From Candidatus Doudnabacteria bacterium (GTDB taxonomy: Bacteria > Patescibacteriota > Doudnabacteria > UBA920 > VMFF01), in the NCBI GenBank assembly GCA_028286905.1, contig JAQBQP010000002.1:383430-447429 (forward strand): a stretch of 64,000 nt of DNA. The letters are read 5' to 3'. Below, piece after piece: positions 31,514 through 57,708 of this stretch; the stretch's first letter is position 1; each line of letters begins with the position of its first letter. The translations under genes were made by a program, and so were the position numbers. The notes beneath the pieces are model-generated. The model searched no databases and was not told where the DNA came from. It worked only from the letters and a program-made list of their open reading frames with translations.

Positions 31514-31559
31514 ATTCCTATAAGTTTAGGCTTATTATTAAGTTGTTAATGTAATTATA

Positions 31560-32882: not shown

Positions 32883-32904
32883 ACACACATTAAGCCGCAC
32901 ACAA

Positions 32905-32944
32905 GGATATATAGCAAGCGGGGCTATAGTGGATAAATATAGAC
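32905..32944 (+). repeat. About 31 bp conserved site, copy 1 (TATATAGCAAGCGGGGCTATAGTGGATAAATAT), between the divergent recombinase and HEPN-like genes
   Basis: 29 of 31 positions identical to 41335-41370 on the same strand. Confidence 0.7.
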
Positions 32945-32986
32945 AAAAAACTCTCTGTTTTTGCTTATATTTGTTAAAATACTGCC

Positions 32987-33754
32987 ATGAAGATAAATCC
33001 ATATTTTCGGACAACGCTAGCAAAACCTTTCCAGGGTAAATTTTTACACGAAGCAGGTGCTGAGGTAATTCTAAATATTCCTATTAATTCAAAAACAATT
33101 GGAAACTTTATCATAATGCTTCCAGATCCAGTTTCTCTAAACTTAAATAATGCCCAAGCTTTTATAGATAAGTGGGTAAAACTAAAAGAACGCATCAATA
33201 AATCAAAAAACTTCACCGTTTACAGCAGCGCTCTTTCTGAGGATGACATATCGGGTAAAAGCCAAGAACAAATAAAACACTTGGATCCTAATGCAAATTT
33301 TTATAGAACCTTAGATGAGGAAAAAGTGTTTGAGTGTATACAAAGTAGTATAGGCGTGGTTATCTCCTTAATCACTGCTATGGAAGCCTTCGTTAATGTT
33401 GTCATTCCTCATGATTACATTTTGCAGAGGACTAATAAACGAAGTGAAAAAGAAAATCTAAATAAAGATTCTATTGTAAAAAAACTATCTATTTCGGAAA
33501 AGATAATTTTAATTGCAGATATAAAAGGCAAGGCGGACTTGAAAGAACAAGTATTCTGGTCAACTTTTCACGAAGTAAAAAAATTGAGAAATGATATTAT
33601 TCATTTCAAAAAAACTGACGCTAACATAAATAATATGTGGGCTCCTATAATTATCGGTTTCCTAGATTCCGATTTACAGAAATTTTTTGATCACTTCGTA
33701 ATTATGATTGATTATCTTCACTCTGGTTATTTAGATACTAAAACTAATATCTAG
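32987..33754 (+). CDS. HEPN-like (Abi-type) hypothetical protein
   Basis: 255 aa, predicted all-alpha, with an Rx4H motif KKLRNDIIHFK near the C-terminus; divergent from the recombinase. The start may instead be the internal Met at about 33114. Confidence 0.5.
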   Translation: MKINPYFRTTLAKPFQGKFLHEAGAEVILNIPINSKTIGNFIIMLPDPVSLNLNNAQAFIDKWVKLKERINKSKNFTVYSSALSEDDISGKSQEQIKHLDPNANFYRTLDEEKVFECIQSSIGVVISLITAMEAFVNVVIPHDYILQRTNKRSEKENLNKDSIVKKLSISEKIILIADIKGKADLKEQVFWSTFHEVKKLRNDIIHFKKTDANINNMWAPIIIGFLDSDLQKFFDHFVIMIDYLHSGYLDTKTNI

Positions 33755-34795: not shown

Positions 34796-37700
34796 TTATT
34801 TATCCTTATCTCTTATAACATTTACTATGTAATTTTGAAAAGTTTTTAAGTAGTAATCCTTAGCTCTTTGAGAGGGGGTATAGCGCGAATTTCCGGTTTT
34901 AGTTTCTACTCCACCTAAAAGATTTCCTTTTTGATCCTTAACTTCTATATCTATCACTCTCTTACCTAAGAAAGTATCTTTTGTAACTTCTTTTTGAACT
35001 AACCTACCATCATTTTGCAATTGATTAGCGACGGTATCTCTAAATGCATCTCCCTTTGCCTTGTTTAATAATACATTAGCCTGTGGTACTTCGCTAACTG
35101 TATTGCTTTCAGATTGTAAACGTTGCCACGCTGATATTCCTGCTACGGTAGGAATTGCTGCTAATATATCCACTACCGCCAATGGTGCATCACCCACAAT
35201 AGCCGGAGCTAGCGGATGATCCATTAACCAATGCGCGCTAGAACTAGAACTATACCAATTATTTGCGTTGTTTCCAACATTTATAACAGCACCGTTCCAA
35301 GCGGCAGCGATTGACCACCTACCTGTGGGGTCTCTAAATAACAATGGGTTATTCCTACCATAACTATAACTATTCAAGCTCTGGGGGTCAGCTAAATAAC
35401 TTTGAGTGTCACTTCCGATCATCGCCATGAGAAGGCTTGTATTTCCCAAGGCCAAAAATGCAGAATCTTCGCTTACAAATCTCCCTATGATCGAATCGTA
35501 ATATCTTGCATTCATATAGTTCAAACCACTATCAGTATCCAACTCAGATCCTGCGTACTGACGTTGATCGCCATACGAACCAGCCTTTTGGTCTATCCTT
35601 ACTGACCCGAACGGTAAATAGTCTAGTAGTTCTTCCTGAACATCAGATGAGTTGGTGGTTATATTAGACCCTGTTAGATTATCCGTAGCTGTGGAATGAA
35701 CAACAGCACTTACTCCTGTACCAGTTACAGTTGCGATCTCAACTCCATTGGCGAAAATATGTTTAGTTTTAATAGTACCATCTGTGTTATAGGAACTCGA
35801 CGGGTAAACAGTGGTTGAGGAGCCTTTTGTGTAAGTTACTCGCTGACCCGTTGGGTCATATTTAAAGGTAACTGTATTTGACCCAGCGACTGTTTGGGTA
35901 ATCCGATTATTATAATCCCAAGTATTTGTATAAGAGGTACCTTTGGTTAACATGTTCCCATTATTATCATAGGTCAATGTCGCAGAACCAATAGTTGTCG
36001 CGGCGTTAGGGTTTGCATAGTTGCTGCCAGTATTTCCTGCATATGTGTAAGAGCCCGGTCCCGTTTTGCTAGTAATATTCCCTATCGCATCATACGCATA
36101 ATTTTCTGTGTATGTTGATTGCCCAGATGCTACGCCAGTTGCCGTAGCTGAGGTTAAGCGATTTAAATCGTCATAGACATACGCAACAGTTTTACTAGAG
36201 TTGGTTCCGGAAGCATCTACGATCTGAGTAATGTTTCCATTATTATCATAAGTATAAGCCAAATCCTGTCCATGCACAGAACTTGCGATCGTCGTAACTT
36301 TATTAGTTAACCGGTAAAGCTTTGTAGCATCGTATGTGTTAGTTGTACTCATACCATTTGCATACGTTGCCGTAGTAACTTGCTCTACCGGGGAATAATC
36401 ATAATTTGAAACCACATTGATAAAACTGGCATCTGTAGATTCTTTTCTTTGCACAGAATTAAGCAGTCCTCCTGTATTAAAGACGTACTGTATCTGTGAA
36501 GAATCAGGATTTGTAATTGTCAGTTGGTTACCCTGGCGATCATAGGTATCGCTAGTAAGATAGGTTGTCGAATTAATAACTTTACTTTCACTCTTTAATC
36601 CCCCGTTCGGGTTATATGTATTTGTTTGGGTAACACTTGCACTCGTAGTACCAGTTAGATGACCCTTACCATCTGTTCCTGAGTCATATGTATTAGTTAC
36701 TTCTGTTCCCGCAGCTCCTGTATAGTCCTCTGTTAGCTGACGGTTGATGTCATCATAGGTATAGTTAACGGTCTGACTCTTCGGATCTACAACCTGGGTT
36801 ATATTTCCCGTATCGTCGTAGGTATACGCCCAACTTCCGTAGGTCGAATCAGCTGACGCGTGTAGGTCTTGCGCAGTTAATCGCCTACCTAAACCATCAT
36901 AAGTAAAGTTTCTCACATTGCTCAATGCATCGGTAATGTTTGTAAGATTATTATTAAGATTCCAAGTGTACGTAGTTGTATAGGTTGAAGCAGAATTGTT
37001 TTCTTCTACCTTTATCAAATTACCATAAGCGTCCTTGTATAGATTTTTTGTCTTACTACGTGGGTCGGTAATAGTAACTTTAAAGCCAAAATAACTATTA
37101 CTTGTTGTTCCAACATTATTTTGCTGAGTTAAGATTCGATCTAAAGGATCGTAAGTATAAGTTATAAATAGACTCGTAGTACTAGTTGGCGAGGTCTTAC
37201 TTGAACCGCTGCTTGCATATGGCAAGGATTCTTGCGACAAGCGACCCGCTGTATCATATACATAATCCTTGGTCGTAAATGATCCTGATGTTTCAGTTTC
37301 TTTGCGCGTCTGTAACAATCGACCTCGACCATCGAAATACTGGTATGTATCGACTCCGTTACTACCGTCTAGATAATCTGTGCGTTGAACAGAAAGAGCT
37401 CCAGAAGTATCCGTATAAACATAAGTAGTCTTAGTCACGGAAGAACCACTAGAAGGATCGGGCATCTTCTCTTCAATCAAGCGACCAAATCCATCATAAT
37501 TTGTTGTCCAAACTCTGCTATTTGGATCCGTCATTGTTGCAACCTTGCCATTCAAGTAATTGTAAGTGTAAGTAGTTGCTTGAGTTAATGGGTTTGTAAC
37601 AGTTGCTGGATAAAGATTATTAATGTCATAAGCATAGGTCGTCACTTTACCTCGTGGATCTGTGGAGGTAGCGACGGTACCATTTGAGTTGTATGTTTTT

Positions 37701-40700
37701 TGAGAATTTATATAAGTAGCGCCTGTTTTCCACTGTTCAATTTTTGTTAGATTACCAACACTAACAGAGCCATAGGCAAGGGTATCAAAGTAATATTTAG
37801 ATTCGTTAACTTTTGCTGCAGATGTATCTGTAACGGTAATATCCTTTGGCACAGTTACGTTAGTTGTGCTATTTGTTGCATAGGCATAAGTTGTAACCTT
37901 TTTATCAGAACCCATGTCTGTAAATGTCCCATCCGTAGCGCCTGTGACCTGACCCCAATCCGTTTGAGTAGCTAAAGTACCATCTGCATTATTATAGGTG
38001 TACTCTGTGGCAGTATCAGTATGGGTAGAGGTTCCATCGTATTGCTCTACAACATCTTTTAATTTTCTTACGAAATCTCTGCCTGTAGCAATATTGTATT
38101 TATCCCATATATCAATCGAACGATTATACAGATTATTAGATAAATCAAAGCGTTCCGATCGATACGCTAAACCAATTTTAGAAACATCATCGTTAGCTTC
38201 GTAGCTTGCTGAGTCATTTGAATCGCCTTGATGATAATAAGTAACTGTTTTACCTGAGGGGTCTGTTGCGGTTACAGTTTGAAAACCGGCAAATTTCTTT
38301 CCTGTATCCAAAGAGTAATAATTTCTGCCATTTACATAATCGTATTGAGTTACTTCATTTGAACCTACGTCAGGAACTACGGTCATTTGCTGAACAACAA
38401 GTTTGGTTTCTCCAATGGTATTGGGTTCATCTTGTTTGCCAATAATAGCAACTTGCTTATAATCGACATTCGTAGTTACACCTCTATTTGAGATAGAACT
38501 AATTAGATCGCTTTTTTTGCCTTGAGTAATATAACCCTTGCTATCTAAAGAACCATAGTTATATATATAATCTATAGCTATGCCGTCAGCATATAAATAA
38601 TCAATTACACCATCGCCATTCAAATCGTATGGCCTAGCGCGATCACCATAGCGAGCCGAAAATTTATCAGATGGAATAATGTAAGTTGACGCTGTATCTT
38701 GTATTAAATTAGTTCCAGTATTTTTATATACATTGGAGTCAATGATGTCGGGTAAATTATCAGCATTAGCATCTATAATTCTTGAAGGGCCGTCAGTTGT
38801 TTCATTGCTTGCCAAAGTATTAGCTACAAAAGCAAATGTTCTATGATCACCGTTTGGACCTGTATATAAATCAGGCATCGCCCAATCAGTTGAAGGTGTA
38901 TTACGATACCATCCATGCCCATTATTAATGTAAACAGCAGTGTCTGTATTCGTAGCTGGAACTCCGCCCGAACCCCTAATTGCATCTGCCAAAACAATAT
39001 CAACTAATCCGTCGTTATTTATATCGCTATACTGAAAATCATTAGAACCATTATCTATATTAGGTATCTCAAAACAAGGGTCATAGACCCAACCACTTCC
39101 TGTATTTCTGAAGTAACCTCCGCGAGCTTGCCCAGAACAGACACTAGCTGCCTCTATATTAGGATCAATAATATCTGGTAGACCATCGCCGTTAACATCT
39201 ATTAAATCAGCGTGAAAATTAATTGGCGCTACATTAGATACATTGTTCGGAGCTGAGTAACTAGTAAAAGAACTAGGATATGTTGGTAAACGCCATCCCG
39301 TGGGAGTACTCCAACCTGTCCCTGTATTTATAAATACAGTAGCATTTTTCTCATAACAGCTGGTTCCAGAATTATCCATACATCCCGTTGCGTATACCAC
39401 GTCCATCAAACCATCCCCATTAACATCAGAAAAACGTACAGGATTACCAGTAACACCACCAGAAGCCACAATTTGCTCAAATCTAATAGTAGACGCTGGA
39501 CCCGAACTTGGAGTATATACATTAGGAAGTTGCCAAGCTGAATCATAAGCCCAGCCATGGGTATTATTAATAAATACAGCCGCAGTATTCCAATAACAAC
39601 TGGTAACGGCTCCAATACAACCCCCTCCGGTCACGACATCTTGTAACCCATCGCCATTTAAATCCACAAACTTAGTAGAAGCCGGTTGGATTATAAAGGT
39701 ATAATCACTTCCATTATTACTGTAGAGGGTAGGAAAGTCTGTAGAAGAAGCGTAAGACCACCCAGAGCCACTATTGTTCTGAAGTTGCGGTGGAATATCC
39801 GAAGGGCCACCTTTCCAAGCTAAATATTTACTTCCGTCGCTATTGATTATGTCCGGCAAACCATCATCATTGGCATCTAAGACATCCGTGTATGTATTAG
39901 TTCCGTAACTAGGAAAATTTAAAGTAGGAGGGGTACGTGATGCCCCAGACCATGTATTTTGAAAAGTTGGAAGCTGCCAATTTGCAAGACTATTGGTTCC
40001 TTGCGCCGCTGCTTGATATGAGAAAGTAATCGCCGGCTGCGATACTTCTGATCCTGAAGTTGGATCTTTTGCTTTTTGGGTTATAGAAGAAAGTAGCGAT
40101 CTGTATCCGTTTACTCCCGTAGTGTAAGCAAGCGCAACGCGACTCTGCCATACTGAGCTTATCTTTGTTTCAATCAAATTTATTCGGTAATTAGTTGAGA
40201 CAGCAAATCCAGCGAAGTACTTGTTAAACCCACCTGTAGAAGATTCTCTTGAAAAATCTATTTCATAAATAGATCCATATGTTATTGCACTAGGATATAT
40301 CTGCCCCGCGTCTTTGTAATACGTATAATTGATGGTGTTTCCATTTGCATCAGTAACACTAGTTAAATACCATCTGAAAATATGAGTGCTGTCACTTGGG
40401 TCATCTTGACGAGTTGCTGCACTGCTCCCAAAAACATAAACAGTCCCTGACTTATCTGTTACTGTCCACGCACTGCTTGAGAAATCGTATTTTCTAAAAT
40501 CTCCTCGCTCTACTTTGGCAGCATAGGAATTACCAGAAATAAAGGTTAAATCATCATCAAGGGAAGAATAATAATCTTTATAGGTACTGTTATATAAATC
40601 TCCGCTTCCATGTTTATTTTCTCTCTCAATGTAAGGTATGTCTAAGCTCCAACCATAGCCAACAATCGAATCATCTCGTAAGTTTTGACTATTATAAGAA

Positions 40701-41245
40701 ATGTTAATACTTGGTGTGAGATTATTCCTGCCTGGAGGAACAACTACCGGATAAGAATAATGCAGAGCTCCCGTGTTACCTAAAACAGATGCCTTTTGAT
40801 TTGATAAGGCCTGCTGTGAATAAACAAGTTTTTGGTCTCCTGTTTCCCCTCCTGTGCTACCTACTCCAGAAGCGTTAGAAACTATTCCACCGGAAGTAGT
40901 TTTAGGAGTTTTCGTTTTAACCTTAGTGCCATTTTTAGCTTCTTCTTTTTCAATTTCTTTTTCTTGTCTCGCGGACACTTCCTGTTCATAAGGAGATTTA
41001 ATCGCGCCTCCCTGAGTAGGGTCATCGTACCCAGAGCTAGTAGACGTATCAGGTGGAATAGATGTAGGGGTAGTAGATAAAGAAGTACTACTGGTGGAGG
41101 AATCCGCTGTGGGCGTAGCAGAACTATCCACAGTGCTAGCTGCTGGTTCATCAGCAAAAACTGGAGCTAGTGGAGTTAAAACAAATAAAAAAGCTAACAG
41201 CACACCTGTTAACTTGCGAACAAAAGCTCCACGAAAAATTTTCAT
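34796..41245 (-). CDS. Giant RHS/YD-repeat polymorphic toxin-like secreted protein (RHS-1)
   Basis: 2149 aa with a signal peptide, a Thr/Ser/Pro-rich linker, FG-GAP/VCBS-like DxNGDGxxD repeats, long YD repeats and the RHS core ending at DPTGRW (DPxG autoproteolysis motif). A divergent roughly 190 aa C-terminal tip containing ...GKRVIDIEVKD... follows. Confidence 0.9.
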   Translation of the reverse strand: MKIFRGAFVRKLTGVLLAFLFVLTPLAPVFADEPAASTVDSSATPTADSSTSSTSLSTTPTSIPPDTSTSSGYDDPTQGGAIKSPYEQEVSARQEKEIEKEEAKNGTKVKTKTPKTTSGGIVSNASGVGSTGGETGDQKLVYSQQALSNQKASVLGNTGALHYSYPVVVPPGRNNLTPSINISYNSQNLRDDSIVGYGWSLDIPYIERENKHGSGDLYNSTYKDYYSSLDDDLTFISGNSYAAKVERGDFRKYDFSSSAWTVTDKSGTVYVFGSSAATRQDDPSDSTHIFRWYLTSVTDANGNTINYTYYKDAGQIYPSAITYGSIYEIDFSRESSTGGFNKYFAGFAVSTNYRINLIETKISSVWQSRVALAYTTGVNGYRSLLSSITQKAKDPTSGSEVSQPAITFSYQAAAQGTNSLANWQLPTFQNTWSGASRTPPTLNFPSYGTNTYTDVLDANDDGLPDIINSDGSKYLAWKGGPSDIPPQLQNNSGSGWSYASSTDFPTLYSNNGSDYTFIIQPASTKFVDLNGDGLQDVVTGGGCIGAVTSCYWNTAAVFINNTHGWAYDSAWQLPNVYTPSSGPASTIRFEQIVASGGVTGNPVRFSDVNGDGLMDVVYATGCMDNSGTSCYEKNATVFINTGTGWSTPTGWRLPTYPSSFTSYSAPNNVSNVAPINFHADLIDVNGDGLPDIIDPNIEAASVCSGQARGGYFRNTGSGWVYDPCFEIPNIDNGSNDFQYSDINNDGLVDIVLADAIRGSGGVPATNTDTAVYINNGHGWYRNTPSTDWAMPDLYTGPNGDHRTFAFVANTLASNETTDGPSRIIDANADNLPDIIDSNVYKNTGTNLIQDTASTYIIPSDKFSARYGDRARPYDLNGDGVIDYLYADGIAIDYIYNYGSLDSKGYITQGKKSDLISSISNRGVTTNVDYKQVAIIGKQDEPNTIGETKLVVQQMTVVPDVGSNEVTQYDYVNGRNYYSLDTGKKFAGFQTVTATDPSGKTVTYYHQGDSNDSASYEANDDVSKIGLAYRSERFDLSNNLYNRSIDIWDKYNIATGRDFVRKLKDVVEQYDGTSTHTDTATEYTYNNADGTLATQTDWGQVTGATDGTFTDMGSDKKVTTYAYATNSTTNVTVPKDITVTDTSAAKVNESKYYFDTLAYGSVSVGNLTKIEQWKTGATYINSQKTYNSNGTVATSTDPRGKVTTYAYDINNLYPATVTNPLTQATTYTYNYLNGKVATMTDPNSRVWTTNYDGFGRLIEEKMPDPSSGSSVTKTTYVYTDTSGALSVQRTDYLDGSNGVDTYQYFDGRGRLLQTRKETETSGSFTTKDYVYDTAGRLSQESLPYASSGSSKTSPTSTTSLFITYTYDPLDRILTQQNNVGTTSNSYFGFKVTITDPRSKTKNLYKDAYGNLIKVEENNSASTYTTTYTWNLNNNLTNITDALSNVRNFTYDGLGRRLTAQDLHASADSTYGSWAYTYDDTGNITQVVDPKSQTVNYTYDDINRQLTEDYTGAAGTEVTNTYDSGTDGKGHLTGTTSASVTQTNTYNPNGGLKSESKVINSTTYLTSDTYDRQGNQLTITNPDSSQIQYVFNTGGLLNSVQRKESTDASFINVVSNYDYSPVEQVTTATYANGMSTTNTYDATKLYRLTNKVTTIASSVHGQDLAYTYDNNGNITQIVDASGTNSSKTVAYVYDDLNRLTSATATGVASGQSTYTENYAYDAIGNITSKTGPGSYTYAGNTGSNYANPNAATTIGSATLTYDNNGNMLTKGTSYTNTWDYNNRITQTVAGSNTVTFKYDPTGQRVTYTKGSSTTVYPSSSYNTDGTIKTKHIFANGVEIATVTGTGVSAVVHSTATDNLTGSNITTNSSDVQEELLDYLPFGSVRIDQKAGSYGDQRQYAGSELDTDSGLNYMNARYYDSIIGRFVSEDSAFLALGNTSLLMAMIGSDTQSYLADPQSLNSYSYGRNNPLLFRDPTGRWSIAAAWNGAVINVGNNANNWYSSSSSAHWLMDHPLAPAIVGDAPLAVVDILAAIPTVAGISAWQRLQSESNTVSEVPQANVLLNKAKGDAFRDTVANQLQNDGRLVQKEVTKDTFLGKRVIDIEVKDQKGNLLGGVETKTGNSRYTPSQRAKDYYLKTFQNYIVNVIRDKDK

Positions 41246-41761: not shown

Positions 41762-42202
41762 TTAGATACCAGAAACAGTTGGGTATTCGTAAAGACTTTT
41801 AGCTATTCCATCATAATACTTTTTAAAGTATTTATTATCCCGTTCGATGTCCCATTCTTTTAAGTACGTGAAAAAACCAAATTCTCCTTGCTCACAAAGT
41901 TCCTTTACAGCACTCAACATGTTTTCCAGTGTTACCTTTTCCAAAACAATCATTCCAGGAGCAGCCTCAAATGGGTGATGGATATCGGCGTTGCGTTTTA
42001 AGGATAGCTCTAAATTATTAATATCATAAAATGTAACCTGGTAACACTTACCGTTTTGAAGCTCTACCAAAACAAACTGAATCCAACCGTTCTCTTTTAC
42101 CTCAGCGGCCATTCTATCATCAAAACCGCCATAAAATTTTAATTTTGGCCAAACGTCATTTTGATTTAAGGTCAGAGGATGGGGTAAATTTAAGTCCTTC
42201 AT
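41762..42202 (-). CDS. Small protein downstream of RHS-2; candidate cognate immunity protein
   Basis: 146 aa whose start overlaps the 3' end of RHS-2 by about 47 nt, the overlap typical of toxin-immunity pairs. Confidence 0.55.
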   Translation of the reverse strand: MKDLNLPHPLTLNQNDVWPKLKFYGGFDDRMAAEVKENGWIQFVLVELQNGKCYQVTFYDINNLELSLKRNADIHHPFEAAPGMIVLEKVTLENMLSAVKELCEQGEFGFFTYLKEWDIERDNKYFKKYYDGIAKSLYEYPTVSGI

Positions 42203-45200
42203 ATGGTTTGGTTTGTATCTTATTTAATGATTCTTGAAACTGTTTTGGGGTAAGGTTTACTCCCTTTTTTGGAACTATTGAGCCATGCCCATTACTACCC
42301 TGTAGAATTTCCAGTTGATCAGGAATACTAATTATTTGATTTGCTCCTCCATATTTTACAACATTTGCATTAGCTGGATCAATATTTACTGAAGGGCCTT
42401 GTGTTCTTCCTACATATCCTGTCTTTGGATCAACTGTAAAGTCTGCGCCCGCCCTACCAGTGAGATCAAAACTTCCACCTCCGCGGTAAAAGCCACCTTC
42501 AACAGATACATTACCTTCAGGAATTGGAATGCCATCAACTGAAATCATATCACCCATAAATATAAACTGCGGTTGATATTTCTTTGTCTGCGCATATTGT
42601 TGAGGCTCATAAACAGGATCGGCTTGCAATATTTTGGGTTGTAATAATCCGATAACTATAAGTGTAATAAGATCGTCAATACCGAAAAATTTTCCTGTTG
42701 GGTCTGTATATTTTAGAGGATTATTTCGAGCATAGCTATAACTATTTAGAGCTTGAGGGTCTGTTAGAAACACTAGCCCATCTTTATCCGTGTCTTTCTT
42801 GATGAGGCTTGGAGAGCCTACTTCCAGAAAGGCAGGATCTTCACTTTGAAATCTCCCGGTTGCTTGATCATAATATCTTGCATCCATATAAGTAAGCCCA
42901 GTGTCGGCATCAAATTCATGTCCGGCAAACTTACGTTGTTCACTAAATGTGCCTGCTTTTTCGTCTAATCTGGATGTACCAAATGGGTAATAATCCAACA
43001 ACTCGTCTTGCGCTCCAACAGCATTAAGCACAATATTACTACCCGTTAAATTATCAGTAACGGTATTGCGAGCGACTGCTGTAGTCCCAGTTCCTGAAAT
43101 TGTCGCCACATCCATACCGTTTGCAAAAATGTGTTTAGTTATATTTGTGCCGTCCGTATTATATAACTTGGTTGGGTAAGCTACAACAGTTGAACCATTT
43201 ACGTATTTTGCTCTTTCTCCATTTGCATCATAGGCATAAGCTATGGTTGTAGATCCAGCAACAGTTTGAGTGAGACGATTATTATAGTCCCAAGTATTTG
43301 TATAGGATGTTCCTTTAGTTAAGACATTTCCATTTCTGTCGTAAGTGAGTCCGACAGAACCTATTGCAGTTACTGCATGAGGATTCGCATACAAGGTTCC
43401 TGTATTACCTGAGTACGCATATGTTCCGGTGATATCAGATTTGGTTAGTAAATTACCGATCGCATCATAAGTGTAAGTTTCTGAATGGTTGTTACTGTTT
43501 ACTGCACTTGTGGTAGTCATCGAGGCCAAGCGATACAAGTCGTCATAGCCATAAGCTACATTCTTCTTTGTGTTAGTCGTAGAATTATCTACAATTGCAG
43601 TTATATTTCCAACGTTATCATAGGTATAAGAAACATCTTGGAATTTAGGATTAAAGTTTACTGTTGCGGTTCTGGTTGTAGAACCTGAACTATTACTTGC
43701 AGTTAACGTATAAGTAGTTGTCGTTGTTGGGCTTACAGATGTGGAGCCATGCCCAAACATGCCCCCAACGCCATTATCAATACTAAAGGTTGTCGGCGTA
43801 CCTCCTGAGACCGTCCAAGTTAACGTCGAACTATGCCCTGAACTAATATTTGCGGGCGTTGCTTGAAAAGTATTAATTACTGGTGCGATACTTGTGTTTC
43901 CTATAATCCAAGAGTAAATAGTGCCCCACCAATTGGTGGCAAAGAGCGTTGCAGTATTGGGATCAAATAATAATGCGTAGACTGAATTTCCGAAACTGGA
44001 ACCTGGAAGACCGGTACTCATTTCTGACCAATTTGTACCGCCGTCAGTTGAAGTTTGCACCCTAGCACCATTGAATACCGAATATAAAGTTGTGTGGCTT
44101 TGTGGACTTATTATCATTCCATCATGGGCAACAAAACCATTTAGATCGGTAATTTTGGTCCAAGTGCTTCCCGAGTTAGTAGTTTTATAAAGATGATTTT
44201 GATTTGACCAGGAATCCACTGATGCCACATATATTGTACTAGTACTGGTAGGGTCTATTACTAATGCTGTCATCTTTGTGGTGGAGTTCAAAGTGTAGGT
44301 AAACACACGAGACCAAGAAGTTCCAGAGTTCGTCGTCTTGATCACTCCAGTATTTACTGAAGCATATAATGTACTTGGAGTCGTGGGGTCTATAACTAAG
44401 TCGTAGGGCAAGTCATTTGTGACACCGCTTGGATCATACACTTTAGACCAAGAAGTTCCAGAGTTCGTCGTCTTATAAATTCCAGTAGTATCGTTAACAA
44501 CGTAAACCGTTCCGGATGTTGCAGGATCAACTACCAAGTCAATATAATTTTGACAACTACTAATTGTCAGTCCACTATTTATTTCAGACCATGTTGTTCC
44601 CGCATCTGTAGATTTATAGACACTGCCATGCGCCCAGCATGAAGAGTCCCAATCTGTAGCGGCATATACTGTATTGTGATTCAGTGGATCCACAGCGATT
44701 GAATTTACTAACCAACTTGAGGTGGAAGTAATTTGTGTCCACGTTGTGCCGCTGTCCGTCGACTTATAAATTCCATTCCATGTGCCAGAATATTCTATTG
44801 TTGAATTAGTTGGATCCATCACCAAGGCTTTTGCAACTTGAGGAGAACCCGAAACCCCAGACCAGCTTGTAGAGATAGTATTGACTGCAGGTGTCGTTGG
44901 TGGAGTACCTGCTGATGAAGTAGGTGTTGTCAATTTATTACTTAACCGGTATAGATGGGCGGCATCATAAGTATTTGCTGTTATGATACCGTTCGCGTAA
45001 TCTGTTTCAGAAATTTGTCCAGTTGGAGAATAATCAAAGTTTGTGACAACGTCCGAATAACTTGAATCCGTAGATTCTTTTCTTTGAACTTGATTTAATA
45101 GACCCGCAGAATTATAAATATATTTTACCTGTGAACTATCAGGGTTGGTAATAATTAACTGGTTACCTTGTCTGTCATATGTGTAATCAGTTTCGTAGCT

Positions 45201-48200
45201 ATTTCCACCAATTACTTTTATCTCAGATTTTAATCCACCTAAGGGATTATACGTATTCGTTTGAGTCACTGCACTTGTTGTCGAAGAATAGAGATGACCT
45301 TTGCCGTCTGTCCCCGTGTCATACACGTAGGTGTTTTCTGTTCCGGTTGCTCCGGTGTAATCTTCAGTGAGTACTCTATTTATATTATCAAAGGTGTAAT
45401 TTGTAGTCTGACTTAAAGCGTCTACCTTCTGAGTTAAATTACCTGCGTCATCATAAACGTAAGCCCAGGTGCCATAAGTAGCATCGGCAGAAGCGTGAAG
45501 ATCTTGAGCAGTTAGATTTCTACCTAAACCATCGTAGGTAAAATTACGAACATTTCCAGAAGCATCGGTAATCTTTAATAGATCACCTAAGAAATCATAA
45601 ACATAATACGTACTATAGGTGCTACCGCTATTATGCTCATCGACCTGAATTAGGTTTCCATAAGCATTTTTATAGAAATCTTTGACTTTAGAATTTGCAT
45701 CATTTACAGTCAGTTTCCAGTCGTTATATGTGTTTGTGGTGGTACCTGCAGCATTTACAGAAGTTGTGATTCTATTCATTGGATCGTATGAGTAGACAGT
45801 ATAAAGTGCTGTGGTAATGGTTGGAGAAGTTTTAGTTGTTCCTATTGAGAAATATGGCAGAGATTCTTTATACAAGTTTCCCCTGCTGTCATATACATAA
45901 TCTTTTACCGAGAAATTACTGCCCTCTGCTTCTGTTCTTTCCTGTAATTTTCTACCTAGACCATCAAAATAGGTATAAACATCAACTGTTGTTGAAGAAT
46001 CTAGATAATTTGAAATCAAAGTCTTCACAGCACCAGAAGTATCTGTATAGATAGTAGTGTTTTTTGTAACCAACGTCGAAGGAGTAATTAAGTCCGGTTG
46101 ATCTTGTTCAACCAAACGATCTAGCCCATCATAAACGTTTTTAAACACTCTAGTATTAGGATCGGTTGTTTGTAAAACCTGTCCTGATGAATAATCATAC
46201 GTATTCGTTGTGACTTGAGAAAGTGGATTTGTTACCGTTGTTGGATACAGATGATAGGTATCATAAGAATACGATGTTGTTTTTCCTCTTGGGTCTGTAT
46301 CTACTGTAACGATTCCATAGGTACCATCATAAGTTTTTTGAGTATTAACAAATGTCGTACTCACTTTCCACATTTCGTGTTTAGTCTGATTTCCTTTTGT
46401 AACTGCTCCAAAAGATTGGGTATCATAATAATACTTATCCTCTTTTACTTTTGTAGCACTATGATCTGTTACAGAAATGTCATCGGGTAAACCAATAACA
46501 TTAGCTCCGTCTGTGGCATAGGTGTACGCGGTTGTAAAATCGTCAGTTCCAATATCAACGTAAGAACCATCGTCACTGCCAGTAACTTCACCTAGTTCAG
46601 TTTTCTGAGACACGTTTCCTGTTGAATTGTTATATAGGTAAGTTCTTGCAACATCTCGGTGTGTACTATCTCCGTCGTATGTTGAAGTGACAGTGCGGGT
46701 CACCCTTACAAATTTCTTTCCGCCTGTTAGATTGTAGCTATCCCATCTATTAATAACCTTTGAGAACAAACTGCCACTAGAATTAGCGACGGTCATGCGA
46801 TACATTTTTCCAATTTTCCAGTACTCATCGCTATACTCACCATGTGTGGAGTCACTTCCATTGCCTTGGTGAAAATATGAAGTCATTACATTTCCTGACG
46901 GATCTGTTTTAGTGATTACTCCAAAGCCTGCAAATTTACGGGTAGTAAAATCTCCACTGTCGAAATAAAAAGACCCTAAAGAATTCGAATATGTGTCGGT
47001 ACCGGTTGTTCCTAAACCATCGTTAGAAGTAACTTGATAAACTGTTTGGATTACATAAGGAAGTTTTGGGTTCAATCCGTTATAGCCAGACAGTGCTGAA
47101 GACTTGTAAGTAAACGTACTAGACCCACCAAAAGGAAAAGTTGTACTAGATAGTAGGTCTGTTGCTGCACTGTTGTTTATATAAATAGAAGTATACCCAT
47201 CCGTAATATCTGCCATCCCATCCCCATTCAAGTCTAAAATATCCGCGCTTGAACCATACCCGTTTGTAAAAGAGAATGTTCCAGGAGTATTCCAGCTAGT
47301 AGTATTCGAGGTCCAACCGTTACCAGTATTCAAATATGTTGTTCTATAAATTGCTCCGTACCAATTTATAGATTGGATCAAATCTGGTAAACCATCCCCG
47401 TTGACGTCCGCAAATCTAACCCCCAGATCTGAAGGATAGTACCCACTCAGATAAGAAGTTGTTAGTGCGGGTGTATAATCGGTGCTTGAAGTCCAGGTTC
47501 CTTTACCATCACCTAGATATGCGCTTGTATTAAACGTTGTACCTGTCCAAGCCAATCTTATAATGTCTTCCAAGCCATCACCGTTTAAATCTAAGAATGT
47601 AGCGTTATCGCCGCTTATAACAGGGAAAGTCCAGCTAGAACCCACGTCGCTGGTCCATCCAGAACCTGTGTTTAAATAAACATGTGCTGCGATTGAACCT
47701 CCCGAAATTGTATTTGATTGAAATATATCTGGAAGACCGTCTCCGTTTAAATCCACTATTCTCGTGCCAAAATCTGACCATAAATACGTAAAATTAATTG
47801 GAGAAGTCCAAGCCGTAGTTACTGTCCACCCACTGCCATTATTTATGTATGTGGCAGCTGTAATCGTACCAGAACTGTCTTTGTTCGAATATATTAAATC
47901 AGCCAAGCCATCGCCGTTTACATCAATAGCGTGAACATTAAAATCAATGTTACTTCCGGCATTAAATGATTTAAACGGGGTAGGAGCGTTGTATGCGGAA
48001 GACGCCGTCCAAGTGCCACTACTATTATTTAAATATGTAGCACGATAGTCAGTTCCGTTTGAAGCGGTGAAAGAAGTGATAATATCAGGCAAACCATCAC
48101 CATTTATGTCTGCAAATAAAGATCTTCCATCGAACGAGGTGTCTGATGGAAAAGACCAACTAGAATTCTGTGTCCAACCAGACGAAGTTGTGGACGTGTA

Positions 48201-49424
48201 CGCATTTGTTGTTGCTGGTAATGTAACGGTTGAGGTGGTAATTTCATCTGTTCCCGCTTCTGTTATAGATGTCAGTATAGAACGTGTACCGTTATCCCCT
48301 GTTGAGTACGCAAAGGTGTACTTACGAGTTATAGTACCATTTGTTTTTATGTCTATTTCGTAGATTCGATAATTCGTAGTTGTGAGAAAACCGCCTTGAT
48401 AAGATTTGGTTACATCACCCCTGGTTTGACGAAGGAAATCTATTTCAAAAATACCGGTCGTTACACCATTCCCCGTATAAATTATTGTATTTGGATAAAT
48501 TTGTCCACTGTCTTTGTAATATGTGTAGGTAATGTAGTTGCTGTTTGTGTCTCTTACTTCATCTAGCATCCACTTAACCACTTTAGAAGAATCCCCCGGA
48601 TTATCCTGTCTTGAACCAGACGCTGTACCAAATTTATAAATAGTTCCTTTTTTATCTGTCACTGTCCATGCAGTTCCATCAAAATTGTATTTAAGGAAAT
48701 CTCCATTTTCTACAGTAGACGCGTAAGTAGTTCCAGAAACAAAAGATAAATCTCCAGAAAGACTGGAGTTAAAATAATTATCAGTAAATAGAGTGCTTAC
48801 ACCTTTTTTATTTACTCTGGAAATATAAGGAACAGTGGTTGTCCATCCATACCCAACGGGACTATCACCAGAAACAGATTGGCTATTGTAAGCAAGTTTT
48901 AAATCCGGTTGCATTCCGTTTCGGCCAGGTGGAATTGTGATCGGATAACTTGAAACCAATGCTCCTGTTGTTTGATCAGGTTGTGGAATTATTTGCTTAG
49001 TTACGGTAGGCTGTGGCAATCCGGTTGCTACATCCTGTTGGATTAGTGCACTTGATTGTGGCGCAACTTTGACCTTTGAAGACTTAGCCGTTGCTGACAA
49101 AGGGTCAGAGCTCAAAGAATCAGTGGTAGGGTCAAGACCAGCAACATCAGGACCTGCTACTGTTGGATCAGTCACAGGCGCGGGAACGGCAGCATTAGGA
49201 GTGTTTACTACAGGATCGGTAAGGGGCGCAGTTGGAGTATCCACCACTACAGGGGAGCTAAGAGCATTACTAGGAGTATCTGATACGGGCGCAGAAATAA
49301 CAGTATTAGAAGTATCTGCGAAAACAGGAGCTAAAGGAGCTATAACAAATAAAAAAGCTAACAGAAAAACTGTTAACCGAGTTACTAGACGCCTCTTAAA
49401 TAGAGTTGCCATTATTTTGTTCAA
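42156..49424 (-). CDS. Giant RHS/YD-repeat polymorphic toxin-like secreted protein (RHS-2) with an embedded BNR/Asp-box beta-propeller
   Basis: 2422 aa with a signal peptide near-identical to RHS-1 (LLAFLFV..PLAPVFAD), FG-GAP-like repeats, YD repeats, six SxDxGxTW Asp-box repeats and a Thr-rich Ig-like segment. The RHS core ends at DPTGKF, followed by a roughly 190 aa C-terminal tip unrelated to that of RHS-1. Confidence 0.9.
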   Translation of the reverse strand: MNKIMATLFKRRLVTRLTVFLLAFLFVIAPLAPVFADTSNTVISAPVSDTPSNALSSPVVVDTPTAPLTDPVVNTPNAAVPAPVTDPTVAGPDVAGLDPTTDSLSSDPLSATAKSSKVKVAPQSSALIQQDVATGLPQPTVTKQIIPQPDQTTGALVSSYPITIPPGRNGMQPDLKLAYNSQSVSGDSPVGYGWTTTVPYISRVNKKGVSTLFTDNYFNSSLSGDLSFVSGTTYASTVENGDFLKYNFDGTAWTVTDKKGTIYKFGTASGSRQDNPGDSSKVVKWMLDEVRDTNSNYITYTYYKDSGQIYPNTIIYTGNGVTTGIFEIDFLRQTRGDVTKSYQGGFLTTTNYRIYEIDIKTNGTITRKYTFAYSTGDNGTRSILTSITEAGTDEITTSTVTLPATTNAYTSTTSSGWTQNSSWSFPSDTSFDGRSLFADINGDGLPDIITSFTASNGTDYRATYLNNSSGTWTASSAYNAPTPFKSFNAGSNIDFNVHAIDVNGDGLADLIYSNKDSSGTITAATYINNGSGWTVTTAWTSPINFTYLWSDFGTRIVDLNGDGLPDIFQSNTISGGSIAAHVYLNTGSGWTSDVGSSWTFPVISGDNATFLDLNGDGLEDIIRLAWTGTTFNTSAYLGDGKGTWTSSTDYTPALTTSYLSGYYPSDLGVRFADVNGDGLPDLIQSINWYGAIYRTTYLNTGNGWTSNTTSWNTPGTFSFTNGYGSSADILDLNGDGMADITDGYTSIYINNSAATDLLSSTTFPFGGSSTFTYKSSALSGYNGLNPKLPYVIQTVYQVTSNDGLGTTGTDTYSNSLGSFYFDSGDFTTRKFAGFGVITKTDPSGNVMTSYFHQGNGSDSTHGEYSDEYWKIGKMYRMTVANSSGSLFSKVINRWDSYNLTGGKKFVRVTRTVTSTYDGDSTHRDVARTYLYNNSTGNVSQKTELGEVTGSDDGSYVDIGTDDFTTAYTYATDGANVIGLPDDISVTDHSATKVKEDKYYYDTQSFGAVTKGNQTKHEMWKVSTTFVNTQKTYDGTYGIVTVDTDPRGKTTSYSYDTYHLYPTTVTNPLSQVTTNTYDYSSGQVLQTTDPNTRVFKNVYDGLDRLVEQDQPDLITPSTLVTKNTTIYTDTSGAVKTLISNYLDSSTTVDVYTYFDGLGRKLQERTEAEGSNFSVKDYVYDSRGNLYKESLPYFSIGTTKTSPTITTALYTVYSYDPMNRITTSVNAAGTTTNTYNDWKLTVNDANSKVKDFYKNAYGNLIQVDEHNSGSTYSTYYVYDFLGDLLKITDASGNVRNFTYDGLGRNLTAQDLHASADATYGTWAYVYDDAGNLTQKVDALSQTTNYTFDNINRVLTEDYTGATGTENTYVYDTGTDGKGHLYSSTTSAVTQTNTYNPLGGLKSEIKVIGGNSYETDYTYDRQGNQLIITNPDSSQVKYIYNSAGLLNQVQRKESTDSSYSDVVTNFDYSPTGQISETDYANGIITANTYDAAHLYRLSNKLTTPTSSAGTPPTTPAVNTISTSWSGVSGSPQVAKALVMDPTNSTIEYSGTWNGIYKSTDSGTTWTQITSTSSWLVNSIAVDPLNHNTVYAATDWDSSCWAHGSVYKSTDAGTTWSEINSGLTISSCQNYIDLVVDPATSGTVYVVNDTTGIYKTTNSGTSWSKVYDPSGVTNDLPYDLVIDPTTPSTLYASVNTGVIKTTNSGTSWSRVFTYTLNSTTKMTALVIDPTSTSTIYVASVDSWSNQNHLYKTTNSGSTWTKITDLNGFVAHDGMIISPQSHTTLYSVFNGARVQTSTDGGTNWSEMSTGLPGSSFGNSVYALLFDPNTATLFATNWWGTIYSWIIGNTSIAPVINTFQATPANISSGHSSTLTWTVSGGTPTTFSIDNGVGGMFGHGSTSVSPTTTTTYTLTASNSSGSTTRTATVNFNPKFQDVSYTYDNVGNITAIVDNSTTNTKKNVAYGYDDLYRLASMTTTSAVNSNNHSETYTYDAIGNLLTKSDITGTYAYSGNTGTLYANPHAVTAIGSVGLTYDRNGNVLTKGTSYTNTWDYNNRLTQTVAGSTTIAYAYDANGERAKYVNGSTVVAYPTKLYNTDGTNITKHIFANGMDVATISGTGTTAVARNTVTDNLTGSNIVLNAVGAQDELLDYYPFGTSRLDEKAGTFSEQRKFAGHEFDADTGLTYMDARYYDQATGRFQSEDPAFLEVGSPSLIKKDTDKDGLVFLTDPQALNSYSYARNNPLKYTDPTGKFFGIDDLITLIVIGLLQPKILQADPVYEPQQYAQTKKYQPQFIFMGDMISVDGIPIPEGNVSVEGGFYRGGGSFDLTGRAGADFTVDPKTGYVGRTQGPSVNIDPANANVVKYGGANQIISIPDQLEILQGSNGHGSIVPKKGVNLTPKQFQESLNKIQTKPYEGLKFTPSSDLKSK

Positions 49425-49492: not shown

Positions 49493-50020
49493 TTATAAAG
49501 GATTGTCTTTATTATATTGCTCATATTCAGCTTCGCTCATATCATTCTCCAGATTAGAAAAGAATCGAGAATCTGTGAGCAGATCCATTAGCAAACTATT
49601 GTATTTATTTTGCAACCATTCTGGAAGTTTGTCGATTAAGGTACGCATATCATCTTCACTAAAATAACTCTTCTGATTTTCATTTTTAAGTATCTTTGGA
49701 TCAAAGCCTTCAATATAGGCCATCCAGAATCTCTGACTTTTTGCATTCCCTTTTATAGCGGCGTTGTACATCGCCTGAAGCATAGCTGGCAGCCTATCCC
49801 TACCCCACTGTTTTAAAATTGCATCAACCTGAGGCTTAAAGTCCGCCCGATTCTTCCAGTGTGTTAGAGTATTCTGGTTTATGTTATAATGCTCCGCAAA
49901 TTCGCCTTGATCGCTTAGGTGAAGCCTTGCTCTTTCAAAAGGAGGAAGCGCTGACCAGCGAATGAACTCCCGGTAAACATCCACTTTATAAACCCCCTTC
50001 TTTTCTACATTTGTCTGCAT
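49493..50020 (-). CDS. HTH DNA-binding protein, phage small-terminase-like
   Basis: The likely start is the Met at 50020 (MQTNVEKKG...) inside ORF 49493-50224. It has an HTH-like segment EFAEHYNINQNTLTHWKN and a ...AIKGNAKSQRFWMAYIEGF motif reminiscent of TerS. Palindromic operators lie upstream. Confidence 0.5.
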   Translation of the reverse strand: MQTNVEKKGVYKVDVYREFIRWSALPPFERARLHLSDQGEFAEHYNINQNTLTHWKNRADFKPQVDAILKQWGRDRLPAMLQAMYNAAIKGNAKSQRFWMAYIEGFDPKILKNENQKSYFSEDDMRTLIDKLPEWLQNKYNSLLMDLLTDSRFFSNLENDMSEAEYEQYNKDNPL

Positions 50021-50113
50021 TTTGATTTCTGCTGATTGAGTCGATAATGTCTTTATTATGGGCCAAATGAGCAAAAAAGTTAAATCTTTTAGATGCAACT
50101 TGCAATAGGGATT

Positions 50114-50128
50114 GTGATTGGCAATCAC
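50114..50128. promoter_or_regulatory. Perfect 15 bp palindrome GTGATTGGCAATCAC (candidate operator) with additional TTCAAT/ATTGAA half-sites nearby
   Basis: Located in the 5' region of the HTH gene. The annotated 243 aa ORF probably over-extends through this regulatory region. Confidence 0.5.
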
Positions 50129-50271
50129 TGTTGCTTTCGCTTTCAATCCGCTTTGAATCACTATTGAAAATCCGCATAGAAAGCGACCTATCCGGGTCAT
50201 TTCCCTATTTGGAAATATCCCCAAATACCCCTTATAATCCGTCTATATTCCTGGGACTGGACCGGCCCCTC

Positions 50272-53945: not shown

Positions 53946-54067
53946 GCTAGATCTAAGCCAAGCCGCTTGATTGTCGTAAAGATAGGTCTGTGCTAAAATT
54001 CTCGCAGTATTAGAAGGAGGAGTTCAAGCAGACAATATCCCCTCCTTAGCCCTTAACTAAGACCACA

Positions 54068-55156
54068 ATGCCTGAGAGATTTTTCGGAGATTTTCACGAT
54101 CAAAAGAACCCCATCAATCCAGAGAAAGTTGAGACTCACCATCGAATGGTTGTAGAATCCGCTCTAGAAGGACCTGAGGGCGAACATGCTCAATTGAGTA
54201 TCGCCTTAGATCAAGATGGCGTAGCCCGTAGGGTCAACTTCTGGGATCTGGATAAGACCTTGCTCCGAGCTGAACCGATACACGCTGTGGCTGTTACGGA
54301 GATCTTCCCGCACGTTCAGGATGTTGATGAACTGCGAAAGATCTACTTTGCAGGTTTCAAACTCGGCAATTCATTTCGAGAATGGGACCGGATGCACCGT
54401 ATTTACACTGAGGGTCAAAACCGCTTCAAGGACCCACAAGTGTACTTCGACGAAGTGATCGCAGCGGACAGCGAACGCCGCAAGGTAGACGAAGAAGGAA
54501 ACCCAACGCACGAGCGAGCTAACGACACGCTTCAGCGTTATGGCAAGATCGCCTATCAGCTCATGGCTGATCGACGGACTCAGGAAACCGAGGAAGGAAC
54601 ACCAAGCTTTTTCGAGAGCAACGGATTCCAACTGGAAGCCGCAGTACATCTGCTCCGCGCAAAATCGCGTATGGGCGAGGTTCATGTTTTTATGACCGCG
54701 AACCAGCAAGATTTCGCTCGGGCGTTAGTAGCGTTCTCTGGCTTATACAAGCATGGAATGTTCTTGGCCACAGATGAAACAATGGTTGGAGGCGGTAAAG
54801 ATATCGCGATCTTGAAGCTCATCGCGCAAATCGAGGCTCAAGGGATAAAGGTTCCTCGACACGACAAGCGTAGACTCGTAGTCTACGGCGACTCAGCTAC
54901 TGGAGATATCGGTAGCAGCAGCAAGATTACCGCTGCACATCCTGAGTTTCAATTCTCGGGCGGGCTGGTCACCGATGATCTTGCAGGAGTAGAAGACTGG
55001 AAACGCAAGATCAAGGAAGAAGAAGGTCTTCCCGAAGCCAAGCAACAGTTGACCGGAATATTTCGCACTGTCGACACCATCACACTTCCCAACGAAGACA
55101 TCGCTCGAAGCGAACGCGGAGTGCACAAGCTCGGTAAGAAACGTTCCCAGGTTTAG
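54068..55156 (+). CDS. HAD-superfamily hydrolase-like protein (GC-rich cassette)
   Basis: 362 aa with HAD motif I FWDLDKTLL and motif IV VYGDSATGD. The segment 54.0-58.6 kb has about 55% GC. Confidence 0.5.
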   Translation: MPERFFGDFHDQKNPINPEKVETHHRMVVESALEGPEGEHAQLSIALDQDGVARRVNFWDLDKTLLRAEPIHAVAVTEIFPHVQDVDELRKIYFAGFKLGNSFREWDRMHRIYTEGQNRFKDPQVYFDEVIAADSERRKVDEEGNPTHERANDTLQRYGKIAYQLMADRRTQETEEGTPSFFESNGFQLEAAVHLLRAKSRMGEVHVFMTANQQDFARALVAFSGLYKHGMFLATDETMVGGGKDIAILKLIAQIEAQGIKVPRHDKRRLVVYGDSATGDIGSSSKITAAHPEFQFSGGLVTDDLAGVEDWKRKIKEEEGLPEAKQQLTGIFRTVDTITLPNEDIARSERGVHKLGKKRSQV

Positions 55157-55241
55157 GTATTGAACTGTATAAGAACAACTTTACAACCGGCGGTCTCCAT
55201 TAGGAAACTGCCGGTTGTTGTTTTTCATGTTCTCTAATAAT

Positions 55242-55275
55242 AGTTCCAACTTCGCCCATGTCCGCAGCCAATACC
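55242..55275 (+). repeat. Cassette-junction motif copy M6 (inside the GC-rich segment)
   Basis: GTTCCAACTTCGCCCATGTCCGCAGCCAATACCA. Confidence 0.75.
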
Positions 55276-55339
55276 AGAACTCAAATGTCGCCGAAGCACG
55301 CAGCAATGACCATAATTGGATTCACAAAAAATATGTTAA

Positions 55340-55527
55340 GATTTTGAAGATGAAATAACTTTAGGCCAGCTTGGTGCTTTACCCTATCCTGAATTGCATC
55401 AATTTACAAAAGAATATTCTAAACGTGTCAGCGAAGAAGCTCATATCTGGCTACGTGAAAAGGGAATGAAAATACAGATCTTTACAGTCAAATATCCTAC
55501 TGCTATACTCAGGCATAACTTGAATGA
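55340..55527 (+). pseudogene. Possible gene remnant (ORF fragment lacking a start codon)
   Basis: A 62-codon open frame ...LGQLGALPYPELHQFTKEYSKRVSEEAHIWLREKGMKIQIFTVKYPTAILRHNLNEDE* that begins right after a stop, with no ATG/GTG/TTG near its start; AT-rich DNA embedded in the GC-rich segment. Confidence 0.2.
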
Positions 55528-55563
55528 GGACGAATAAAAACCACCTTCTCAGAGAGGCGTAAA

Positions 55564-57558: not shown

Positions 57559-57596
57559 ACAAACAACCCAAAGGAGAAACAGGAGAAAAACGAAAA

Positions 57597-57633: not shown

Positions 57634-57708
57634 TTAATAACGCTTTGGCGTGCATGGACTCAACTGCACTAAAGAAGCTTAAAAAAATATTCAGTAAAAA
57701 AACAAAGC

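Follow-up and report, generated by a model that had tools for sequence, protein, structure and literature searches.

A predicted Asp-box beta-propeller module in the YD shell of an Rhs cocoon toxin-like protein from a Candidatus Doudnabacteria bacterium, inserted at a swap slot of related proteins

We analysed a 64,000-nucleotide stretch of a Candidatus Doudnabacteria genome (contig JAQBQP010000002.1, positions 383,430 to 447,429; hereafter the window), in which two large Rhs-type genes lie in tandem on the minus strand: RHS-2 and, downstream of it, its paralogue RHS-1. RHS-2 (42156..49412, −; start ATG at 49412) encodes the deposited protein P0229 (2418 amino acids, aa), whose sequence matches at 100% identity the entry 'MAG: hypothetical protein JWO40_677 [Candidatus Doudnabacteria bacterium]', on a 540-kb contig; the corresponding mechanical open reading frame (ORF; 42156..49424, −) has 2422 aa, a TTG start at 49424 and a stop codon at 42156-42158. 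RHS-1 (JWO40_674; 34796..41245, −) encodes 2149 aa. Within the YD shell of RHS-2 we found a 421-aa insert (aa 1505-1925; 43650..44912, −) bearing six Asp-box motifs and predicted to fold as a seven-bladed beta-propeller with one immunoglobulin (Ig)-like domain, at a position where related proteins carry other, unrelated modules.

Pfam searches detected SpvB, FG-GAP and RHS repeats in both proteins. The translation of RHS-2 opens with a signal-peptide-like N-terminus (MATLFKRRLVTRLTVFLLAFLFVIAPLAPVFA/D, the slash marking the presumed cleavage point) and then a Pro/Thr/Ser-rich linker (49317..49412, −). The h-region of RHS-1 is nearly identical, both proteins starting ...LLAFLFV..PLAPVFA/D plus a Pro/Thr/Ser-rich stretch; judged by its sequence, the RHS-2 N-terminus appears to be a signal peptide. 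There follow a TcB-like N-terminal SpvB domain (best stretch aa 152-232; 48729..48971, −; PF03534, E 2.7e-16), FG-GAP/VCBS repeats that are the counterpart of the TcB gate propeller (aa ~437-745; 47190..48116, −; PF13517 6.9e-22, PF01839 2.5e-13), and the first part of the shell, TcB-mid-like plus YD repeats (aa ~746-1504; 44913..47189, −), delimited by BLASTP against RHS-1 and by RHS_repeat PF05593 (5.1e-19). The shell is 45-58% identical to that of RHS-1 by BLASTP, and PF25023 (TEN_YD-shell) was seen in homologues. Beyond the insert, the shell resumes and runs into the Rhs core (aa 1926-2240; 42705..43649, −), as located by BLASTP (58% identity with RHS-1) and motif search. The Rhs autoproteolysis motifs (RxYDxxxGRFxxxD ... 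PxxxxDPxG) are kept as RYYDQATGRFQSED at aa 2183 and PLKYTDPTG/KF at aa 2236 (slash, predicted cleavage), and the core motifs are kept in RHS-1 also.

The variable C-terminal domain of RHS-2 (aa 2241-2422; 42159..42704, −), the presumed toxin cargo, is unrelated to that of RHS-1 and had no homologue among the 120 closest relatives, its sole Pfam match being a weak one to ADPRTs_Tse2 (E 0.043). The first ~70 aa after the RHS-1 cleavage site, rich in Ala, Gly and hydrophobic residues, recur in about 10 other homologues and are absent from RHS-2; they may be a shared pre-toxin or translocation segment. A small ORF lies directly downstream of each gene. The one behind RHS-2 (41762..42112, −; 116 aa from an internal ATG, the mechanical ORF extending to 42202) is a candidate immunity protein and gave no Pfam match; the RHS homologue P0231 likewise has a 116-aa gene directly downstream, dissimilar to the small ORF of RHS-2.

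The six Asp-boxes share a single minus-strand frame (44019-44762, aa 1555-1802) inside the ORF 42156..49424, at a spacing of 44-51 aa: STDSGTTWTQI (44730-44762, aa 1555), STDAGTTWSEI (44580-44612, aa 1605), TTNSGTSWSKV (44439-44471, aa 1652), TTNSGTSWSRV (44304-44336, aa 1697), TTNSGSTWTKI (44151-44183, aa 1748) and STDGGTNWSEM (44019-44051, aa 1792), all on the minus strand. The pattern [ST]x[DN]xGxxW matched seven times in the six frames of the window; six matches are these Asp-boxes, and the seventh is isolated, at aa 591 of the same RHS-2 ORF. RHS-1 had zero matches. Shuffling gave a mean of 0.05 chance matches for the insert (maximum 2 in 5000 shuffles) and 0.13 for the whole of RHS-2. 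A first-pass annotation of this stretch had quoted six SxDxGxTW repeats in RHS-2 and had noted that RHS-1 lacks them; both observations hold, with six motifs in frame against the 0.05 expected from insert shuffles.

BLASTP aligned RHS-2 aa 415-1504 with RHS-1 aa 494-1656 and resumed at RHS-2 aa 1916 (to at least aa 2214) with RHS-1 from aa 1647; effectively, RHS-2 aa ~1926 falls on RHS-1 aa ~1657, at 58% identity. Junction mapping yielded 421 extra residues at a gap between RHS-1 aa 1656 and 1657, with the junction sequence ...LYRLSNKLTT, insert, QDVSYTYDNVGNIT... Because the RHS-1 alignment is continuous on both sides of these residues, the insert splits the YD shell between one YD repeat and the next, ~760 aa past the FG-GAP region and ~315 aa ahead of the Rhs cleavage motif. 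BLASTP and junction mapping located the equivalent junction of RHS-1 (aa 1654-1660, ...TTIASSVHGQD...; 36266..36286, −), which is uninterrupted. The first-pass annotation, which had called for a comparison with RHS-1 at this very position, had placed the repeats between the YD shell and the FG-GAP region; that placement has to be corrected, since the insert interrupts the shell itself.

An AlphaFold2 model of the insert (28 aligned sequences) had a predicted local distance difference test score (pLDDT) of 85.5 and a predicted template modelling score (pTM) of 0.80. The chain would leave the shell through a Pro/Thr-rich linker (aa 1505-1521, AGTPPTTPAVNTIS; 44862..44912, −), of which the first 12 model residues are disordered (pLDDT <50). 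The strand pattern then describes a closed seven-bladed Asp-box beta-propeller (aa 1522-1840; 43905..44861, −) with four strands in each blade and an Asp-box in six; the seventh blade, VYALLFDPNTATLFATNWWGTIYSW, closes the ring by taking up the N-terminal strand TSWSGV, so that the first strand joins the last blade. An Ig-like beta-sandwich of six predicted strands (aa 1848-1922; 43659..43883, −; model residues 344-418, pLDDT 55-85) would return the chain to the shell, and this part gave weak Pfam matches to I-set, BACON and PKD.

Profile and structure searches identified the propeller class. Sortilin-Vps10 (PF15902) matched the isolated insert above threshold (61.9 bits vs a cut-off of 33, E 6.5e-17), with no match in the whole-protein scan. 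The sequence matches of the insert in the PDB were GH74 xyloglucanases (1e-12) and the BNR protein 3B7F, and Foldseek returned, in order, GH74 propellers (1e-16), 3B7F, DAIP, Ycf48, Vps10p domains and the archaeal 1L0Q; for the propellers other than 1L0Q, identity was 13-20% and the target-length-normalised TM-score 0.61-0.74 (Ycf48 up to 0.74). Among these entries, the structures of Ycf48, DAIP and the SorLA Vps10p domain contain peptide or protein ligands and those of GH74 xyloglucan; in 1L0Q, an S-layer protein from an archaeon, a PKD domain follows a YVTN propeller. These results predict the insert to be a seven-bladed Asp-box propeller of the Vps10/GH74/Ycf48 class plus one Ig-like domain.

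The first-pass annotation had called this a sialidase-like BNR propeller. The propeller survives, both in the AlphaFold2 model, where the repeats do fold into a closed seven-bladed propeller, and in the PF15902 match; the sialidase class does not. The model has seven blades vs the six-bladed sialidase propeller, the insert contains neither [FY]R[IV]P nor RIP, the sialidase profile BNR_2 (PF13088) gave no match at E<=10, and no sialidase was found among the insert matches listed. We also rejected a GH74 xyloglucanase: the insert has a single propeller of ~320 aa vs the two tandem seven-bladed propellers of GH74, and all matched GH74 chains have about 685-780 residues and two propellers. GH74 enzymes have their active site in the cleft that separates the two propellers. 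GH74-type activity is unlikely because the matched GH74 chains have two propellers and the insert one. A catalytic role, in which a sialidase- or GH74-like activity would open the way for the toxin by trimming glycans on the target surface, would agree with the presence of sialidases and GH74 xyloglucanases among Asp-box propellers, and with the GH74 enzymes at the top of both the sequence and the Foldseek matches; we consider it highly unlikely, as every matched GH74 entry has two propellers where the insert has one, the blade number, FRIP and Pfam results speak against a sialidase, and Ycf48 and DAIP, the closest relatives with a single propeller, bind without catalysing. With one propeller, no sialidase features and binders as its nearest single-propeller relatives, the module would bind rather than catalyse.

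We then compared RHS-2 with the 120 best homologues of its full-length sequence, mapping the junction in each by the RHS-1 flanks. All 120 combined SpvB with RHS, nearly all had FG-GAP as well, and the named ones were mostly Patescibacteria (Paceibacterota, Staskawiczbacteria, Falkowbacteria, Uhrbacteria, Parcubacteria). Exactly at the junction, 39 of the 120 carried 212-886 extra residues, and nearly all others carried none (two had 21 residues). These inserts fall into at least 12 classes unrelated by sequence. The main classes, with families assigned by Pfam, were the Asp-box propeller plus Ig (three proteins: RHS-2, P0231 and P0232), a 223-aa module with no Pfam match (17), Gly_rich_2 plus Bact_surface_Ig-like (5), LamG (5), CBM_4_9 (3), and one each of Ig_Rha78A_N plus PKD, an Ig array plus CHB_HEX_C_1, and Big_7 plus SLH (P0300), the remainder being without a family. 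Most of the assignable modules (CBM_4_9, LamG, Ig-type, SLH, and the 223-aa module, which resembles carbohydrate-binding modules, CBMs) belong to types that bind carbohydrates or surfaces. The junction is a swap slot, at which unrelated binding-type modules stand at exactly the same place in related toxins.

Insertions of at least 150 aa relative to RHS-1 numbered 60 in 54 of the 120 homologues, all within RHS-1 aa ~1416-1889 (window ~35579-36998, −). They cluster at RHS-1 aa ~1650-1660 (the propeller slot), ~1750 and ~1775-1810, all in the last ~550 aa before the cleavage site; in these homologues, the N-terminal half of the shell showed no insertion of this size. A crude similarity dendrogram built on the shell flanks showed the insert classes scattered; the flanks closest to those of RHS-2 were insert-free (P0233, 65%; RHS-1, 62%), and those of P0231 reached 58%. 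The three propeller inserts are 40-43% identical, below their flanks, with all structural motifs retained. Homologues of the Ig-like domain occur as 4-9 tandem copies in P0247, P0261, P0263 and P0295, the array standing at the propeller junction in P0263 and at a second insertion site in the other three. The Ig-like domain is thus one of a family that elsewhere builds very long tandem arrays: P0247 has nine copies inside its RHS shell, and P0349 (4314 aa) has 47 stretches matching the Ig-like domain of the insert.

Two further observations concern the slot. The 223-aa module (P0230 aa 1483-1705, and 17 other homologues) is its commonest insert and is sometimes duplicated within one insert; a G-D-G triplet close to the N-terminus, R-x-G-H-D and D-P-x-L-E-V-T-Y are among its invariant residues. 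The AlphaFold2 model (pLDDT 93) found its best PDB matches in the chondroitin-sulfate-binding CBM 8WAB (7e-6) and the alginate-binding CBM 7VBO, and the module looks, on this modelling, like an undescribed CBM-like family. In P0244, two LamG domains of the slot insert enclose a second copy of the flanking shell segment (...YDYSPLGKVTTQTYANG...QDLAYAYDANGNITRIVD...), which looks like the footprint of recombination or duplication at the slot.

Searches for further propeller carriers were made at several levels. With the insert alone or a 671-aa junction-spanning fragment as the query, the listed matches were all shorter than ~1.75 times the query, so that RHS proteins could not appear; for both queries they were free-standing one- or two-propeller 'Ycf48-like' proteins, and the full-length query alone recovered RHS homologues. 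The top 150 matches of a representative-sequence search were multi-propeller or Ig-array surface proteins, none combining RHS with BNR (local check; Pfam on four long matches); with clusters formed at 50%, RHS proteins that bear inserts are probably concealed by representatives that do not, and this search gives no carrier count. A generic Asp-box pattern search of genome contigs, built on the three-insert alignment, returned 80 loci, all propeller genes from outside the Candidate Phyla Radiation (CPR) at 35% identity or less and none RHS-flanked, and yielded no donor lineage and no further RHS-plus-propeller carriers. The rarity of the module, with three carriers, is the one point in favour of a chance resemblance or a functionless, decaying gene-fusion relic. 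We find such an origin hardly credible, given six motifs vs 0.05 expected, an intact reading frame, a confident fold prediction, and a module kept in two other proteins at 40-43% identity with its structural motifs complete.

The window neighbours of the RHS genes are housekeeping genes and a serine recombinase. The latter, a large enzyme with Resolvase, Recombinase and Zn_ribbon_recom domains (31560-33023, −), has a LOOT RNA match directly downstream (31419-31532, −; Rfam RF03000, 75.7 bits), both within a few kb of the RHS genes, which may therefore be located on a mobile island or next to one. An ORF with HATPase_c_3 and Hypoth_Ymh (29166-30851, +) adjoins a tRNA and the recombinase/RHS region. 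The G+C content is 48-54% at 54000-58000 vs about 39% elsewhere in the window; in this high-G+C region, the first 200 aa of a 664-aa ORF (55564-57558, +) contain sigma-70 regions 2 and 4, and its long C-terminal part has no assigned family. On the contigs of P0231 (L001; region 1564-3648) and P0232, the propeller-bearing RHS gene has a Trans_reg_C (OmpR-type winged-helix) gene close upstream; the window has instead a 243-aa ORF (49493-50224) with a weak helix-turn-helix match only. Among the neighbour proteins compared between the window and the P0231 contig, BLASTP found no similarity and no shared accessory genes.

We hold, with moderate confidence, that RHS-2 is a Sec-exported, single-chain TcB/TcC-like Rhs cocoon toxin whose propeller is an external, exchangeable, non-catalytic surface-binding module deciding which surface is engaged. 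The protein would run from a signal peptide and Pro/Thr linker through SpvB, the FG-GAP propeller, the YD shell and the Rhs autoproteolytic core to a unique cargo, with a candidate immunity gene behind it. The module of aa 1505-1925 sits at an inter-repeat turn in the final third of the YD shell and would be carried on a two-legged stalk, the flexible Pro/Thr leg leading out and the Ig-like domain leading back, so that the propeller could be held outside the cocoon. Its size, its stalk topology and the precedent of SGS1 all point to such an exterior location; at ~45 kDa and rigid, it could hardly share the cavity with the cargo. From there the propeller may tether the cocoon to a glycan or protein ligand on a cell, thereby setting which cell surface the toxin engages. 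In this sense the module is probably a swappable surface-binding device and not a sialidase, and a role in targeting is suggested. The first-pass annotation had likewise read the propeller as a target-recognition device; recognition is plausible, and what fails is the fold family and the location that it had claimed.

Several points weigh against this interpretation. The exterior location derives from module size, stalk topology and SGS1, and the Ig-like part of the insert model is of moderate confidence (pLDDT 55-85). Relatives in the propeller class bind peptides and proteins (Ycf48, DAIP, Vps10p) as well as glycans (GH74), so that the ligand may be of either kind. Three RHS proteins with the propeller were found, no more. 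Lastly, the slot modules include SLH (P0300), which classically anchors to the producer's own wall, so that slot modules may bind self.

This last point leads to a different function, in which the propeller and Ig-like domain tie the cocoon to the envelope of the producer (wall polymer, S-layer or pilus) for contact-dependent killing, with no target recognition. SLH domains are cell-wall anchors, and P0300 carries Big_7 plus SLH in the same slot; the Foldseek match 1L0Q, an S-layer protein, pairs a propeller with PKD; and the Pro/Thr-rich stretch that follows the signal peptide is reminiscent of a stalk spanning the wall. Most slot modules are of CBM, LamG or Ig type, however, and are silent on self vs non-self, whereas the high module diversity in close relatives fits changing targets better than a conserved self-envelope, and RHS-1, the paralogue in this cell, lacks a module altogether. 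We regard self-anchoring as rather unlikely but as the most probable of the alternatives, the SLH module of P0300 lending it genuine weight.

The module could alternatively serve structure or assembly, as a second gate or plug, or as an oligomerisation or docking surface for an unidentified translocator replacing TcA. In Tc toxins, closure of the cocoon and docking to TcA fall to the TcB propeller, and the chamber of SGS1 is extended by a propeller (PMC9935623). No TcA-type domain turned up in the 20 ORFs of the window that were scanned, and no other window ORF exceeds 700 aa; with no TcA gene among them, some other partner would be needed. Yet RHS-1 and about two thirds of the homologues are insert-free at the junction with FG-GAP propeller and core motifs intact, and the slot holds unrelated folds, including simple CBMs, which speaks against a conserved mechanical role; we consider a part in assembly improbable.

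In the reading that we prefer, an exchangeable surface-binding module on the cocoon, the finding itself is a domain-architecture variant backed by prediction, not a new mechanism, and the exchangeable slot is more interesting than the rare propeller. More tentatively, and as a possibility rather than an expectation, the SpvB, FG-GAP and RHS family widespread in Patescibacteria might use the last third of the shell as a programmable display scaffold, in which one preferred and two or three secondary inter-repeat turns take interchangeable binding cassettes, such as an Asp-box propeller, CBMs, LamG, Ig arrays or SLH, that retarget a TcA-independent toxin to different partner cells; the cassettes would then be specificity determinants of CPR-host or CPR-competitor interactions. 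CPR bacteria are thought to depend on other cells, and the molecules that choose the cell touched or attacked are largely uncharacterised. If our interpretation is true, giant secreted cocoon toxins with an exchangeable cassette would be concrete, clonable candidates for CPR cell-contact specificity, and receptor domains on an Rhs shell, structurally seen so far only in mosquito SGS1, would extend to bacterial polymorphic toxins. The propeller-plus-Ig insert, at ~45 kDa, should lend itself to expression on its own, for use on glycan arrays or in envelope pull-downs, and the slot marks a permissive insertion site usable for retargeting engineered Rhs or Tc cocoons.

In the literature searched, with subscription journals outside its scope, neither Rhs toxins from CPR bacteria nor an Asp-box propeller within an Rhs shell was described. 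Against the PDB, the RHS-1 sequence gave weak matches only, to RhsA (7Q97) and Tse5, too distant to place the slot on a solved shell. The WapA-type Rhs toxins of Gram-positive bacteria are polymorphic YD-repeat toxins with a downstream immunity gene, act between bacteria independently of the type VI secretion system, and are exported in a Sec-dependent manner; WapA has N-terminal wall-binding repeats and lacks SpvB and FG-GAP, and is not known to have modules inside its shell. Ycf48/HCF136, DAIP, 3B7F, the Vps10p domains and the GH74 halves share with the insert an Asp-box per blade, a closed seven-bladed propeller and a Sortilin-Vps10/PSII_BNR signal in Pfam; Ycf48/HCF136, DAIP and 3B7F are free-standing, however, GH74 enzymes have two propellers, and none is embedded in an Rhs shell.

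Teneurins, both bacterial teneurin-like and metazoan, resemble RHS-2 in combining a Sec-exported, toxin-enclosing YD shell with a propeller and variable adhesion domains (PMC13018210, PMC5851990). Their propeller, in contrast, is a six-bladed NHL propeller of the conserved superfold, they lack SpvB and FG-GAP, and the domain scheme of the bacterial proteins shows no sign of adhesion domains spliced into the shell (PMC13018210). The TcB-TcC part of Tc toxins is alike in its SpvB N-terminus, FG-GAP-type propeller, YD shell, PxxxxDPxG Rhs core and hypervariable C-terminal cargo, and single-gene natural B-C fusions are known (PMC7861908). The RHS-2 module distantly resembles the receptor-binding domains of Tc toxins, but these are borne by TcA, whereas RHS-2 bears a binding-type module on the cocoon itself and has a Sec-type signal-peptide-like N-terminus; a member of the Rhs polymorphic-toxin family with no evident TcA, RHS-2 is a single-chain cocoon toxin of TcB/TcC-like build and no canonical Tc toxin. 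SGS1 (8FJP) is an Rhs/YD cocoon with a TcB-like propeller, in which domains inserted in the YD sequence decorate the exterior of the shell (PMC9935623), and the RHS-2 module is likewise encoded as an insertion within the YD repeats and would act in the manner of the SGS1 receptor domains. SGS1 is, however, a eukaryotic (mosquito) protein with other inserted folds at other positions, no Asp-box propeller and no known swap slot, whereas RHS-2 belongs to a CPR bacterium and its module is exchangeable across paralogues and orthologues.

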